A stretch of DNA of 64,000 nt from the IMG/VR virus record IMGVR_UViG_3300037247_000810, positions 1 through 64,000 of that record; one strand, 5' to 3'. The notes below the pieces were generated by a model. It worked only from the letters and a program-made list of their open reading frames with translations. It was not told the origin of the DNA and made no database searches. The position numbers and the translations under genes are program-made. Position 1 is the first letter of the stretch, and every line of letters starts with the position of its first letter. Below, piece by piece: positions 6,615 to 46,847 of this stretch. The DNA comes from a virus.

Positions 6615-7366
6615 CCGTACAACTCTCGCATACGCGGCTCTGCCACCTTGTCAATCAACTTCTTGTCGATGTCGACGCCGATGGCGTTGCGGCTTAGCTT
6701 CAAGGCAGCGACCATCGTAGTGCCGGTGCCTACCATTGGATCAAGAACCACGTCGCCCGGTAGCGTGAATAGCTCGATGTAGTGCTCCGCCTCGGCCTGG
6801 GATTGTGTCCAGCCCTCCGGGTGCTGACTCTTGTCCGGTGGCTCGCTGGTGAGCGTGTCGAAGCGCCACCAGCGCGTGTCGTGCAGGCGGCGGCAGGGAT
6901 GTCGACACTCAGCGAAGTTGGTCTCCCGCACTGGCTTCTCCCGGCCCTTCACCTTGCGCGTCTTGCCGGTGTCCGTGCGGCAGTCCTGCTTGCACTCCGG
7001 CGTACACATAACCTCATACTTGCCCTTGACGAAGATGAGCATGGGCTTCCACCGGCTCTTGACCCGCACGGGCCGCATGAGTGCGTTACCCTTCGGCGTG
7101 TGGAGCGAATCCATCCAAACGAACTTCAGGTGGCCGCCCAACTCCTCGATGACCGTCGGCAGATGGTACTGGCCGCTGTACGACACCAGCAGCCCGCCGT
7201 CCACAAGTACGCGGGCCGCTAGCTTGCTCAGTCCGCACCAGAGATCGAGGTATTGGCCCCCATAAGGCGGATCGGTGAAGATCATGTGTACGCTGTCGTC
7301 GGGGATGTGGTCAGCCGTCAGCTTATTGAAGTCCCCGCGATAGAAGTCGTACCAGGGTTTAGTCAT
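6611..7366 (-). CDS. second DNA methyltransferase (beta class)
   Basis: FTDPPY and VLDPMVGTGTT motifs; Cys-rich insertion. Confidence 0.88.
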   Translation of the reverse strand: MTKPWYDFYRGDFNKLTADHIPDDSVHMIFTDPPYGGQYLDLWCGLSKLAARVLVDGGLLVSYSGQYHLPTVIEELGGHLKFVWMDSLHTPKGNALMRPVRVKSRWKPMLIFVKGKYEVMCTPECKQDCRTDTGKTRKVKGREKPVRETNFAECRHPCRRLHDTRWWRFDTLTSEPPDKSQHPEGWTQSQAEAEHYIELFTLPGDVVLDPMVGTGTTMVAALKLSRNAIGVDIDKKLIDKVAEPRMRELYG

Positions 7367-7994
7367 CGCGCATCTTCGGCAGTGCCACACCACCCTCGTC
7401 TTTCCACTCGCTCACCAGGCGCGGCAGGTGGAATTGGAAGAAGGGGAGCGTGGACGGCTCGTCGGCTCGCCGGTGACGGAAGAACCAGGTGGCGACCTGC
7501 TTCAACGTCTCCAGCGAATACGTGCGCAGCATCTCGTCAATGAGCGCCGTATCCCGGCCCCGACCGCGCTGTGGGCGGGGGTATGGCTCTTCAATATGCC
7601 GCTCGTGTAGCTCACACCAATGGTTGACGAATTCCCAGACCGTGCGCCAGGGCGTCTTAGGTGTACCGACGCGCCTCTCGACTGGCGGCGCGTCGGGATC
7701 GACCTCCGGCACATCGTTCACGGTAATCGTCGGCGGCCGCTCTTCCGCATCAAGCCAGAGGAAGCCGTAGCCCTCTAGCTCCTGGATGACATTGCCGAAG
7801 CGCGTCTTGCTAATGCCCAAGTAGCGGGCGAAGCGGGTGATGCTAACCTCCGTCCCCGCCAGGCGGTCGTCCGCAAGCGCTTCATATACCAGCCCGGCCT
7901 CCCGCGAGACGACATGCTGCCAGTGTTCATGCCAGTGCTCAGGGAGCCGATCTAGCGGCTCGGCGTGTACGATGTTGAAAGTAGTGTCAGGCAT
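7359..7994 (-). CDS. HTH protein, replication initiator/regulator-like
   Basis: SITRFARYLGISKTRFGNVIQELEGYGFL winged-HTH pattern. Confidence 0.55.
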   Translation of the reverse strand: MPDTTFNIVHAEPLDRLPEHWHEHWQHVVSREAGLVYEALADDRLAGTEVSITRFARYLGISKTRFGNVIQELEGYGFLWLDAEERPPTITVNDVPEVDPDAPPVERRVGTPKTPWRTVWEFVNHWCELHERHIEEPYPRPQRGRGRDTALIDEMLRTYSLETLKQVATWFFRHRRADEPSTLPFFQFHLPRLVSEWKDEGGVALPKMRDD

Positions 7995-41001: not shown

Positions 41002-41032
41002 ACACTGATAGCCTACCACAGTCGCAGGCGAG

Positions 41033-41062
41033 TTGACAAGGGCGGGCCAGAACAGGTACTAT
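41033..41062 (+). promoter_or_regulatory. sigma70-type promoter
   Basis: TTGACA-N18-TACTAT. Confidence 0.65.
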
Positions 41063-41068
41063 GGCCCT

Positions 41069-41476
41069 GTGACTAGCTCATCTACAAAACGGGGGCATTC
41101 CGTCGAGGCGCGCCGTGCGGAGTTAGACCGAGCGCTCCGCAGGCCCCGTCGGGTTCTGTGGTCGTACTGTCCGCATCACGAAGGCGGATATTACTTCTTC
41201 GGCATCAGCATCCAATCATGGGGCGGCGGTGAGGAAGAACGCTGGAGTGCTGACCCGGATATGCGGAAGATCAGGGGCACCTGTATGTGGTGCGGGAAGC
41301 GCACGATCTTCTTTGTCAATGCTGATGAACTAGAGAAACACCGATACACACCCATTGAACTCTGCCTATGTGGGCTCCCGGACTATCACAAGGCCCCTTC
41401 CGTCACCTTCCTTCAAGAATACAACGCTATGGGCGTAGTTTGCCGACCCAATGGCCGTCAAGAAGCCAACGTTTGA
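41069..41476 (+). CDS. Cys-rich hypothetical protein (possibly leaderless)
   Basis: CPHH...CMWC; GTG near predicted transcription start. Confidence 0.55.
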   Translation: MTSSSTKRGHSVEARRAELDRALRRPRRVLWSYCPHHEGGYYFFGISIQSWGGGEEERWSADPDMRKIRGTCMWCGKRTIFFVNADELEKHRYTPIELCLCGLPDYHKAPSVTFLQEYNAMGVVCRPNGRQEANV

Positions 41477-42116
41477 CGAACTCACGGAGGAGAGCCGCTA
41501 CGCCGGGCCGCGCCGGACGCCAGTACTCGATCACGCAGCAGTCACTAAGGCCGTAATCGAATGGTTCCAGAACAAGAGCCAATGGCGGGCAGCCGAGACC
41601 GAGATGGCGCTGCCGACGAGCCCCCGTCGAAAGGCGACTCCGAAGTCTGCCCCATCTACCATCGTGCGGCGGGCCGATGTCATCGCGTTCAATTCCGCCG
41701 ACCACGAATTCTACATCATCGAAGTCAAGGCCCAGTGGAACGACTTCCACCAAGACCGCAAGTTCTTCGACTATCGCAAGTGGTGTAACTGGTTCGCCTT
41801 CGCCGTGCCGGAGGAGCTAGCCGTATGCGCCCGGCGACGGATGGATGACATCCCTGGCTGGTACGAGGGTGTGGGCCTGCTCGTGATCCCCAATGACTAC
41901 AGTGATCGGCGAATGGTGCGACGGCCGAAGAAGTACGAAATGTCAGACGAGGACTACCGCTCGATGGCCGAGCGGTGGGGGCTGTCTTGTTGGGGACGGC
42001 TGATCGGGACGCGCACGAAGATCGCCGAGCTAGAGTGGCAGCTAAAGAATATCCGGTCAGATGTCCGCCAATTGCAGAAGAAGCTAGGCGACTCGAATCC
42101 TACCCTCTACCCGTAA
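41451..42116 (+). CDS. MmcB-like PD-(D/E)XK nuclease
   Basis: RRADV....IIEVK....DF..D.K...Y..WC..F.FAVP. Confidence 0.85.
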   Translation: MAVKKPTFDELTEESRYAGPRRTPVLDHAAVTKAVIEWFQNKSQWRAAETEMALPTSPRRKATPKSAPSTIVRRADVIAFNSADHEFYIIEVKAQWNDFHQDRKFFDYRKWCNWFAFAVPEELAVCARRRMDDIPGWYEGVGLLVIPNDYSDRRMVRRPKKYEMSDEDYRSMAERWGLSCWGRLIGTRTKIAELEWQLKNIRSDVRQLQKKLGDSNPTLYP

Positions 42117-42121
42117 CGCCA

Positions 42122-42433
42122 ATGTATCCAATTCTGCCGGGGCCAAAGGATTACAGCCTAGAGGACGCGGAGTGCGAGAAGCCCTTCGCCATTTACGTTT
42201 GGGAATCGCCGCTCTGCCCGCGATGCGGGCAATGGCTTCGGCCCGTGGATATGCGGCCAGTTGGACAACCGTTCCAGGCAACCGCTGCCTGCCCGTCCTA
42301 TCACGGACTACTCATTCACAACCAAACGGTCTGGGCTGATCTCCGTCCCCCGAAGGCCCAGAGGGGAGGCGACGGGGCCTGGTGTTCGAGTCTCACCGCC
42401 GAACAATTACGGGTGATGGCCGCGGAGTATTAA
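42122..42433 (+). CDS. small zinc-finger protein
   Basis: CPRCG...CPSYH. Confidence 0.5.
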   Translation: MYPILPGPKDYSLEDAECEKPFAIYVWESPLCPRCGQWLRPVDMRPVGQPFQATAACPSYHGLLIHNQTVWADLRPPKAQRGGDGAWCSSLTAEQLRVMAAEY

Positions 42434-42440
42434 ATGCGAA

Positions 42441-42467
42441 CACCGCGCCCCAATTAGAGGCGCGGTG
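42441..42467. terminator. hairpin between convergent transcripts
   Basis: CACCGCGCC-N9-GGCGCGGTG. Confidence 0.6.
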
Positions 42468-42474
42468 CTGATAT

Positions 42475-42699
42475 GTGACGGGTGACTTGGGGGCGGCCGG
42501 TGTGGGCAACTCAGACCCGCAAGTCTTCGATTCCTCTCAGACCTTGGCACTTGCTTCCGGTCTGGATTATTTCAACGCCGCCCGTCCGACGTTAGCCCAC
42601 GGGATCACACACCTGACCCGTGGGGAAACGCAGTGGCCCGCGCGGGTGCTACCACTGTCCACGTCTTCGGGCAAGCCCTACTGGTGAACTTACGCAGGC
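42475..42699 (-). ncRNA. unknown structured RNA, about 220 nt
   Basis: Nested helices; last element of the RNA operon. Confidence 0.5.
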
Positions 42700-42745
42700 C
42701 GGTGCCGGTGGAGGGAGTCGAACCCTCTTCTTACCCTTGACCGGC
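42700..42745 (-). ncRNA. mini-tRNA 1 (acceptor + T arm only)
   Basis: GCCGGU/ACCGGC stem, GAGGG-UUCGACU-CCCUC T arm, ends ACCG. Confidence 0.75.
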
Positions 42746-43776: not shown

Positions 43777-43849
43777 TGGCACACCTGGTAGGAGTCGAAC
43801 CTACTCTCACGGGTTTGGAGTCCGGTCGGCGCATCCCGCGCTCAGGTGC
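43777..43849 (-). tRNA. tRNA-Trp(CCA)
   Basis: Loop CTCCAAA; short D loop. Confidence 0.85.
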
Positions 43850-44239: not shown

Positions 44240-44308
44240 TGGAGCCAGGGGCGGGATTCGAACCCGCGTCTACAGACTTACAAGGCCCTAGACAACCTGT
44301 TACCTGGC
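44240..44308 (-). tRNA. tRNA-Thr(TGT), D-arm degenerate
   Basis: Loop CTTGTAA, intact T arm, 69 nt. Confidence 0.7.
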
Positions 44309-44398: not shown

Positions 44399-44410
44399 TG
44401 GCACCGCTTC

Positions 44411-44564: not shown

Positions 44565-44651
44565 TGGCGGAAGGTGAGGGATTCGAACCCCCAAGGCCCA
44601 TCACGCCCAACCGCTTTCAAGGCGGTGTACCACACCAATGGCAGACCTTCC
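44565..44651 (-). tRNA. tRNA-Ser(TGA)
   Basis: Loop CTTGAAA. Confidence 0.9.
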
Positions 44652-44827: not shown

Positions 44828-44913
44828 GTGTGCGGCGGCCTGCATCACAGTGTGCCTACTAACATATAGGGTGGAGCCCAATGTTTCGGCACACGCCGCC
44901 GCCATCCACATTC
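44828..44913 (-). ncRNA. unknown hairpin RNA with loop-E-like motif
   Basis: GCGGCGGC/GCCGCCGC, GUGUGCC/GGCACAC and ACAU/AUGU helices. Confidence 0.5.
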
Positions 44914-44960
44914 TGTGTCGGCTGCGGGAATCGAACCCACCTAACACCAGTTTAGCCGAC
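44914..44960 (-). ncRNA. mini-tRNA 2 (acceptor + T arm only)
   Basis: Perfect 7-bp GUCGGCU/AGCCGAC; GUGGG-UUCGAUU-CCCGC. Confidence 0.78.
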
Positions 44961-45804: not shown

Positions 45805-45812
45805 TTGTTATC

Positions 45813-46142
45813 GAGCAATCGGGTCGTAAGCCGCTTTCTGTTTCTCTGCCTACATCTCTCTAGCTGTCACGCGGTCGCTGCCAAACTACCCGCCGCGCCT
45901 CCGGCCCCCTAACGCAATCCGTCTTTTCACACGACCTCCGTGTCTCCGGGTCTCGGCAGGCTCGGTGGCCCGCTACCCGTAGTCGCTGTTCGTGACATCT
46001 CGCCGGTCTCTTGCCCGACGGCCCGCCTTATTAGGGACGGGTAGGTTGTTTGGCGGCCGAGCGGACTTTCCTCAAGGGCCTCGTGGTGCAAACGCCTCGC
46101 GGCTCCCACCAGACGATCCTGCGTAGGCACGTCCGATTGCTC
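45813..46142 (-). ncRNA. rnpB: RNase P RNA (ribozyme), reduced architecture
   Basis: P1 GAGCAAUCGG/CCGAUUGCUC; P2 UGCCUAC/GUAGGCA; CR-I GAGGAAAGUCC; CR-IV AGAGAGAU; CR-V ACAGAAAGCGGCUUA; P4 CCGCU/AGCGG. Confidence 0.9.
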
Positions 46143-46145
46143 TCT

Positions 46146-46196
46146 TGGCAGCCGGTCGCGGAATCGAACCGCACGGAGGTCAACCAGACCCCGGCT
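46146..46196 (-). ncRNA. mini-tRNA 3 (acceptor + T arm, GCCA end)
   Basis: AGCCGG/CCGGCU; UGCGG-UUCGAUU-CCGCG; directly 5' of the RNase P RNA. Confidence 0.78.
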
Positions 46197-46346: not shown

Positions 46347-46395
46347 CGGTCGACTGCGCGGGGATTTGACCCCATAGCGCCAAGCGCCGCAGCCG
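46347..46395 (-). ncRNA. mini-tRNA 4 (degenerate T arm)
   Basis: CGGCUGC/GCAGUCG + ACCG; GGGG-UCAAAU-CCCC. Confidence 0.55.
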
Positions 46396-46818: not shown

Positions 46819-46847
46819 AATATACCGGATCGCGGAATACTTGTCAA
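46819..46847 (-). promoter_or_regulatory. strong sigma70-type promoter of the tRNA/RNase P operon
   Basis: TTGACA-N17-TATATT, about 50 nt upstream of the first tRNA; AT-rich upstream. Confidence 0.85.

Follow-up and report, generated by a model that had tools for sequence, protein, structure and literature searches.

We analysed a 64,000-nucleotide (nt) stretch of viral DNA (the window throughout), which comprises the first 64 kb of the 103,459-bp IMG/VR virus record IMGVR_UViG_3300037247_000810 (82% complete by CheckV), and focused on the segment that closes a large transfer RNA (tRNA) operon on its minus strand. Judged from its sequence and that of its homologs, this segment encodes an RNA that is conserved, non-coding, compact in its fold and dispensable; it closes the operon on the 3' side, between a tRNA-like minihelix and a terminator. 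We are highly confident that it represents a real family of RNAs that are structured and non-coding (ncRNAs). An original prediction, made from the letters of the window, had drawn a single multi-helix unit of about 220 nt between a mini-tRNA and the terminator at the operon end. Reading of the sequence confirmed this location and homolog comparison upheld a structured RNA, but the unit is better split into a conserved core of 155 nt (the core RNA) and a lineage-specific 5' domain of 70 nt (Table 1).

With an alignment of the large terminase (TerL), 39 metagenomic loci were recovered, plus one locus from IMG/VR (L002). Eleven of the loci extended far enough upstream of TerL and, as two pairs were duplicate or near-identical, nine were compared. 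Core homologs were found directly after the last tRNA-like element in four of them (L005, L018, L017 and L013; nhmmer E=1e-40 to 1e-50), and the TerL proteins of these relatives were 60-81% identical to that of the window phage. The alignment of the five core sequences (A3) had a mean column identity of 71%; the covariance model R1 scored the homologs at 119-147 bits and detected a single copy in the window phage genome. Logan contigs of two marine sequencing runs (X2 and X3) also spanned the whole RNA, with variants about 90% identical to it (~30-35 substitutions and 26-27 gapped positions each, over ~370-390 bases). The TerL relatives and the runs holding the stretch came mostly from marine sediment or marine metagenomes, with cold-seep and hydrothermal-vent sources at a low share. 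A blastn search of the region against phage (50,697 records) and plasmid collections gave no match, a single-protein TerL scan of IMG/VR found no relative, and four motif scans (three of IMG/VR and one of GTDB genome contigs) returned at least 400 pattern matches, all of which were chance by nhmmer. In these sequence searches the core RNA is so far restricted to one clade of uncultured marine phages; the family may be larger than five sequences.

The fold statistics are based on five related sequences, namely the window, L005, L018, L017 and L013. The core fold consists of four hairpins (H1, S1, the variable H3 and P4) and two covarying long-range pairings, a kiss between the loops of H1 and P4 and the pseudoknot P2. 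In the 38-pair model, 92% of cells were paired, compared with 36-48% when the partners were slid by 1-3 columns. Fourteen pairs were changed on both sides, compared with 0-3 in the slid controls, and this number was reached by none of 500 shuffles. The covariation that the original prediction had proposed to look for among homologs is thus present, and the Rfam search it had also proposed returned no known family.

Among the hairpins, H1 (eight pairs) had 97.5% of cells paired and three pairs changed on both sides; its L005 version is CCAUCAGGU/ACCUGAUGG, and run X2 carries a further compensatory change (G42617A with C42603U). H1 is the one helix of the original prediction, CCCACGGG/CCCGUGGG, that proved conserved with compensatory changes. 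P4 (GACUUG.GGGU/GCCC.CAAGUC) comprises 11 pairs, five of them changed on both sides. Its pair before GGU/GCC varies between G-C, U-A and A-U, G42518A is accompanied by C42491U in both X2 and X3, and the window mismatch C42519.C42490 becomes a U-A pair in X3 (C42519U with C42490A). The 20-nt apical loop of P4 (42514-42495) has a conserved 5' half, YUGWGUGCYC. S1 has 8-9 contiguous pairs in every one of the five sequences; in L013 and L017 one A-U pair is gone from both strands together. S1 is less certain than H1, P2 and P4 because of a competing helix, CGGCGUUG/CAAGUGCCG. This alternative (P3) was itself rejected as weak: 85 of 500 shuffles were equally good, and it is absent in L013. The predicted CAGACC/GGUCUG hairpin does form in the window, as H3, but it is variable rather than conserved. 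At the same spot L018 has CUCGG/CCGAG around the same AGCAAGUG loop, L005 has a weaker stem with that loop, and L017 and L013 have unrelated hairpins.

The two long-range pairings were then compared across the five sequences. The H1-P4 loop kiss showed six of six Watson-Crick pairs in each sequence, made by four distinct hexamer pairs: GGUGUG/CACACC in the window and L017, GGUGAG/CUCACC in L005, GAUGAG/CUCAUC in L018 and GGUACA/UGUACC in L013. Non-cognate combinations of the loops mostly gave 2-4 pairs, and loop shuffling attained six pairs in 2-6% of trials per sequence. P2, between the S1 loop and the 3' tail, had 100% of cells paired and two pairs changed on both sides (window GACGGG/CCCGUC, L005 AGUGGG/CCCACU, L017 UGCGGG/CCCGCA, L013 AGUGGG/CCCAUU). 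A pseudoknot had been suspected from the window, and one exists, but its partners are not the proposed GGGCGGC/GCCGCCC. Both strands of that pairing are invariant, so covariation is uninformative about it, and it clashes with the covarying S1, P2 and P4.

Every complementary segment that the original prediction listed was found on the minus strand where it had been placed, yet homolog comparison indicated that the secondary structure built from these segments is mostly wrong beyond one hairpin. The helices CAGUGG/CCACUG, GACGU/ACGUC and GCCCG/CGGGC lie in or depend on the 5' domain, as does the outer pairing GGCCUGCG.AAGU/ACUUGCGGGUC. This domain is missing from L005, L018 and L017, in which the tRNA-like element joins the core directly, and L013 has an unrelated 9-bp hairpin at its site; the X2 and X3 contigs do contain the domain. 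In all homologs the 3' partners of the proposed helices have other, covarying partners: ACGUC is part of S1, CGGGC of P2 and ACUUGCGGGU of P4. In X2 and X3, U42696, the partner given to G42518 in the original prediction, has become C while G42518 has become A, which would give a C.A mismatch. On this comparative evidence, the outer and closing helices appear to be lineage-specific at best.

The core RNA was not kept in all relatives. L008 holds a decayed copy (7350-7500; 18 bits with the covariance model), which retains the UUCUUCC leader and H1, with the terminator following almost at once and the kiss partner, S1, P2 and P4 missing. The tRNA arrays of L002, L019, L021 and L022 end with a terminator only, without the core RNA. 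The RNase P RNA encoded in the same operon is kept in L002, L008, L019 and L022 despite the absent or remnant core RNA. Because relatives bearing RNase P RNA lack the core, we regard the core RNA as an accessory element that was lost more than once.

We examined whether the segment belongs to any known class. As the original prediction held, it contains no credible open reading frame (ORF): none of the frames, on either strand, stays open in all five homologs, and the indels are not multiples of three. The antisense ORF at 42475-42687 (70 aa) was rejected since no frame is conserved among homologs. Rfam 15 gave no match to the window sequence at the gathering threshold or at E<=10, and none to the homologs L018 and L017 at E<=10. 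The earlier failure to recognise signal recognition particle (SRP) RNA, transfer-messenger RNA (tmRNA) or 6S RNA by eye was thus borne out. No paper describing the core RNA, and no catalogued family, was found. The RNA keeps its place and its sequence in four related phages, and covariation is seen in five helices, in keeping with the suggestion of a new ncRNA class. By sequence comparison, the core RNA appears to be a new family within a known kind, the structured RNAs that lie beside phage tRNA genes.

Other candidate classes were tried and rejected. The RNAs ROOL and GOLLD gave no covariance-model match at the gathering threshold or at E<=10; the locus itself is of the type in which they occur, as the RNA closes an operon of 40 tRNAs in a phage with TerL and portal genes. 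A riboswitch or T-box-type cis-regulator would have no sense-strand gene downstream of the terminator to control. An RNase P RNA guide ('split RNase P') was set aside, as the complementary runs are not at homologous places in the three genomes with both RNAs. A tRNA-shaped scaffold does not fit, since the 5' and 3' ends lack acceptor-type closure.

The operon lies in a window of 60% G+C; the phage carries genes for TerL and a portal, and the core RNA locus is 2.6 kb from the terminase gene. Forty tRNA genes, nearly spacer-free, follow the promoter on the minus strand (ARAGORN, Rfam). Reading of the gaps between them revealed two odd tRNAs missed by ARAGORN, four mini-tRNAs consisting of an acceptor stem and T arm, three short RNAs and an RNase P RNA. 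The core RNA unit is the final element, before the terminator hairpin (42467-42441). The terminator stem, of up to 12 bp, is at the same place in all five sequences and has nine contiguous pairs in the window; a U-rich tail follows it in the four homologs. A simple terminator scan missed the window terminator because of its 9-nt loop and interrupted tail. The cluster has one promoter, one terminator and no internal promoter, with no second good promoter found between the operon promoter and the core RNA, an arrangement that would suit a non-tRNA RNA of the T4 RNAC/RNAD type, co-transcribed with a phage tRNA cluster.

The mini-tRNA in front of the unit begins right after the CCA of tRNA-Thr(CGU), ends in ACC-G rather than CCA and was not called a tRNA by ARAGORN or Rfam. 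A minihelix or tRNA-like element lies immediately upstream in every homolog (L005 2640-2674, L018 6992-7034, L017 3863-3966, L013 1651-1709). Its tRNAs without spacers, an RNase P RNA of its own and the minihelices that punctuate it make the operon look built for processing by RNase P only. The CCA ends of its tRNAs abut the next tRNA directly, and an RNase P cut at each next 5' end would finish the 3' end of the preceding tRNA. A non-tRNA cistron would break this chain, and a minihelix in front would restore it. An acceptor/T-arm minihelix is a classical minimal substrate of RNase P (reviewed in PMC11143913).

Together, we favour, with modest confidence, a stand-alone structured ncRNA that forms the last cistron of the phage tRNA/RNase P RNA operon and acts in trans. 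The core RNA would be transcribed from the operon promoter at 46847. The minihelix would provide an RNase P site, and the cut would free the CCA end of tRNA-Thr and set the 5' boundary of the unit. Because it ends in ACC-G and nothing tRNA-like follows, the minihelix may stay attached as a 5' handle of the RNA. The 3' end would be set by the intrinsic terminator. The released product would then act as a stable compact RNA, a scaffold or decoy that binds a protein or RNA in the sphere of tRNA and translation; any specific binding partner is put forward with much lower confidence than the package as a whole. Such a function would be accessory, because sister phages keep the tRNAs and RNase P RNA yet lost the core RNA.

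Several observations weigh against this proposal. The ends of the RNA are placed from anatomy only. Nothing points to a binding partner, and the record, 82% complete, has no gene for TROVE, SmpB, RnpA or a CCA-adding enzyme. Minimum free energy z-scores were weak: the interval 42475-42699 gave -1.36, the 155-nt core -2.0 and the L018 homolog -0.2. Folding energy alone is not above chance, and many alternative helices can be drawn in a sequence of 60% G+C. With five full sequences from one clade the covariation statistics are fragile, and the shuffle control ignores relatedness. Beside the helix that competes with S1, the base of P4 has two registers on a GCCGCC repeat, both covarying; the fold may be dynamic or partly mis-drawn. 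Finally, a position just before the terminator is equally expected of a cis-acting 3' element.

Such an element, in which the fold and the terminator together shield the polycistronic tRNA precursor from 3'-to-5' exonucleases or tune termination opposite the convergent genes, without any function in trans, is an unlikely alternative. The core RNA always lies directly upstream of the terminator, with the 3' strand of P2 ending 7-14 nt before the terminator stem, and it is dispensable. In four of the five sequences the J1/2 segment could in addition pair with the terminator's 3' half over 7-8 bp, counting G-U pairs, but this complementarity stems from GC-rich sequence likeness and is without covariation. 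A terminator hairpin alone normally suffices, and the arrays of L019, L021 and L022 end in that way. Moreover, a 3' barrier needs far less than a fold of 155 nt held by two tertiary contacts that covary and bearing loop nucleotides that are conserved, and there is nothing downstream on the sense strand to regulate.

More doubtful still is a self-assembling RNA, in which the H1 loop of one molecule pairs with the P4 loop of the next, head to tail, to build a ring or a cage like those of phi29 pRNA or ROOL/GOLLD. The loops are complementary, non-palindromic and covarying, and covariation cannot separate intramolecular from intermolecular pairing. In ROOL, covariation had led to a tertiary reading of a kissing loop that turned out to be a quaternary contact (PMC12286853), and the present locus adjoins tRNAs and is close to the terminase gene. 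If this were true, the 155-nt RNA would be a minimal counterpart of the ROOL/GOLLD cage or the phi29 ring, derived from a tRNA operon and with the minihelix displayed outside. However, the oligomers are proposed by analogy, the kiss looks sterically easy within one molecule, where ~100 nt and two hairpins separate the loops, the packaging genes of the phage are a normal TerL/portal set, and the Rfam models of pRNA, ROOL and GOLLD gave no match.

We give very little credence to a highly divergent housekeeping RNA (tmRNA, SRP/4.5S, 6S or Y RNA) alongside the divergent RNase P RNA. The RNase P RNA of the operon reaches only 26 bits against a 100-bit threshold, so divergence could hide a family, and GCU AAC GUC ... 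in the window reads ANVGRAALK*, as a tmRNA tag might. However, this tag-like frame occurs in the window only and is destroyed by indels and missing stops in L005, L018 and L017: it runs for 40 codons in L005 and meets no stop before the terminator in L018 and L017. In addition, the minihelix at 42701-42745 is self-contained and wholly upstream, the 3' end of the RNA is a terminator without CCA, ARAGORN reported no tmRNA, and SmpB is not encoded in the 82%-complete record. As for SRP RNA, GGAAGCAAGUGCCAAGG resembles the tip of SRP helix 8, taking E. coli 4.5S for comparison, but the AGCAAGUG loop is found in three of the five sequences and is replaced by unrelated ones in L017 and L013, and the GGAA tetraloop (GNAR) occurs in the window only. 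For a bacterial Y RNA (YrlA), no TROVE match was found in the 103-kb record, and weak YrlA matches fall on genuine tRNAs. No weak match to any of these families appeared at E<=10 in the window, L018 or L017.

The least credible reading takes up the ribozyme suggested by the original prediction, as a self-cleaving one that would cut the minihelix/RNA junction and release both products: a compact pseudoknotted fold does lie at a junction needing processing, and the ACC-G junction is conserved in three of five homologs, but no self-cleaving family in Rfam matches the window, L018 or L017 (HDV-like, twister, hatchet, pistol or hammerhead), the strand order misfits the nested double pseudoknot of HDV-like ribozymes, no HDV-like P1 complement follows H1 (by eye, the GCUAACG after H1 is not complementary to the leader GUUCUUC), the 50-70 nt inserted between junction and core in the window and L013 would displace the presumed cleavage site, and the anatomy needs no catalysis.

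Table 1. Core RNA unit and other operon features in the window (positions counted from the first letter of the window)
Feature	Position	Strand	Description
Conserved core RNA	42475..42629	-	155 nt; 151-159 nt in homologs
Pyrimidine-rich conserved leader	42629-42624	-	GUUUCC; precedes H1
Hairpin H1	42596..42624	-	CCCACGGG (42624-42617) + CCCGUGGG (42603-42596), 13-nt loop
Kiss 5' half, H1 loop	42608..42613	-	GGUGUG; partner CACACC 42499-42504
Kiss 3' half, P4 apical loop	42499..42504	-	CACACC; 3/6 pairs changed on both sides
Hairpin S1	42573..42594	-	UAACGUCG (42594-42587) + CGGCGUUG (42580-42573); 6-nt loop
S1 loop	42586-42581	-	GACGGG; 5' strand of pseudoknot P2
Pseudoknot P2, 3' strand	42477..42482	-	CCCGUC; pairs with S1 loop; 9 nt upstream of terminator stem
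Variable hairpin H3	42538..42564	-	CAGACC(GG)/(CC)AAGGUCUG, loop AAGCAAGUG
Hairpin P4	42484..42525	-	GACUUGCGGGU (42525-42515) + GCCCCCAAGUC (42494-42484)
Lineage-specific 5' domain	42630..42700	-	~70 nt; holds the CAGUGG/CCACUG hairpin and the 5' strands of the outer and closing helices of the original prediction
Mini-tRNA	42701..42745	-	7-bp acceptor stem + T arm GAGGG-UUCGACU-CCCUC, 11-nt linker; read from sequence
Intrinsic terminator	42432..42467	-	CACCGCGCC, 9-nt loop, GGCGCGGUG, then UUCGCAUUU
Operon promoter	46819..46847	-	TTGACA-17-TATATT; sigma70, 11/12 consensus matches; first tRNA 50 nt downstream
Divergent compact RNase P RNA	45811-46140	-	RF00010 full length, 26 bits vs 100-bit threshold, E=7e-6
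Three further acceptor/T-arm mini-tRNAs	44914-44960, 46146-46196, 46347-46395	-	each directly after a tRNA CCA
Two uncalled tRNA-sized elements	43777-43849, 44240-44308	-	acceptor stems, T arms, CCA ends; ARAGORN/Rfam silent
Long GC-rich hairpin RNA after second mini-tRNA	44828-44913	-	GGCGGCGGCGUGUGCC...GGCACAC...GGCCGCCGC

Further observations were made elsewhere in the operon. The RNase P RNA carries CR-I GAGGAAAGUCCG, CR-V ACAGAAAGCGGCUUA and a P1 helix GAGCAAUCGG/CCGAUUGCUC, and homologs of it were found in L002, L008, L017, L018, L019 and L022. The three further mini-tRNAs precede non-tRNA segments (an 85-nt RNA, the RNase P RNA and a 75-nt RNA, in the order of Table 1) and have differing 3' ends, ACAC-A, GCCA-A and GACC-G. 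For the GC-rich hairpin RNA and the other two short gap RNAs, no homologs were detected in related loci (nhmmer, E<1e-3). The two uncalled elements resemble aberrant tRNAs with unusual D and anticodon regions. The sole sizeable spacer between tRNAs, 44399-44410 (minus strand; GAAGCGGUGCCA), is CCA-ended, like a stranded 3' acceptor fragment. Rfam assigned 44569-44651 (minus strand) to tRNA-Sec at 49.1 bits against a 47-bit threshold, and ARAGORN read the anticodon as UGA (tRNA-Ser); this gene is probably a tRNA-Ser with a long variable arm, not a selenocysteine tRNA.

Beyond the terminator, plus-strand ORFs (41033-42433) converge on it, the last ending at 42433, and the next credible minus-strand gene downstream starts at 41019. 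The MmcB-like ORF at 41451-42116 (PF06319, plus strand) is overlapped in another frame by a 152-aa ORF (41975-42433, plus strand) that stops 8 nt short of the shared terminator; the two may be one frameshifted or two-part gene (41451-42433). By eye, the C-terminal coding sequence of this region is apparently conserved antisense in L005, L008 and L018.

Phages with large tRNA sets repeatedly bear enigmatic structured RNAs nearby, from T4 RNAC and RNAD, known for 50 years, to GOLLD and ROOL. The core RNA offers a small and tractable example (~155 nt) whose tertiary architecture is defined by covariation, and the sister phages with tRNAs and RNase P RNA but without it provide natural pairs of presence and absence. 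It is moderately interesting alone and more so within an operon with RNase P RNA and minihelix punctuation. Knowledge of how the core RNA is released and of its binding partner would test the processing logic of the operon and could offer a first clue to the pairing of such RNAs with tRNA islands in phages.

Among known systems, ROOL (RF03087) and GOLLD (RF01998) are structured phage or prophage RNAs with unknown function, often near tRNA islands, and their architecture, like that of the core RNA, relies on kissing loops and on pseudoknots that covariation revealed (PMC12286853, PMC5737381). Unlike the core RNA (155 nt), they measure ~580 and 800+ nt, and the core RNA has no Rfam match. Its family is so far confined to one small phage clade, and multimers of it are hypothetical.

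The phi29 pRNA (RF00044) is similar in size (~120-170 nt), has two mutually complementary covarying loops, and its gene, too, lies near packaging genes. The pRNA loops pair between molecules, forming a ring on the portal of protein-primed phages with a gp16 ATPase. In contrast, the window phage has an ordinary TerL and portal, its RNA has no Rfam match, and the core RNA gene lies in a tRNA operon.

In mascRNA/MALAT1 and the tRNA-miRNA TMER units of MHV68, as predicted here, a fused tRNA-like element serves as an RNase P/RNase Z handle that defines the end of its neighbour. The mascRNA model gave a weak match to another minihelix of the operon (27.9 bits, 46352-46394). These are eukaryotic or herpesviral systems; the handle here, in contrast, consists of nothing but an acceptor stem and a T arm, within an operon of bacterial type, and its cleavage is predicted.

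In setting, the RNAs of T4, along with ROOL and GOLLD, come closest to the core RNA. RNAC and RNAD (species 1 and 2) are stable non-tRNA RNAs of the T4 tRNA region whose roles are unknown (PMC3014915, PMC9697503). Both they and the core RNA lie beside or after tRNAs in one transcription unit, which for the core RNA is judged from gene arrangement only. They differ in that blastn against the 50,697 phage records showed no sequence similarity, and in that the core RNA has a larger fold with a kiss and a pseudoknot, in an operon with minihelix punctuation and RNase P RNA. In other phages small stable RNAs are encoded beside the tRNA genes, and the core RNA may be their counterpart in function.

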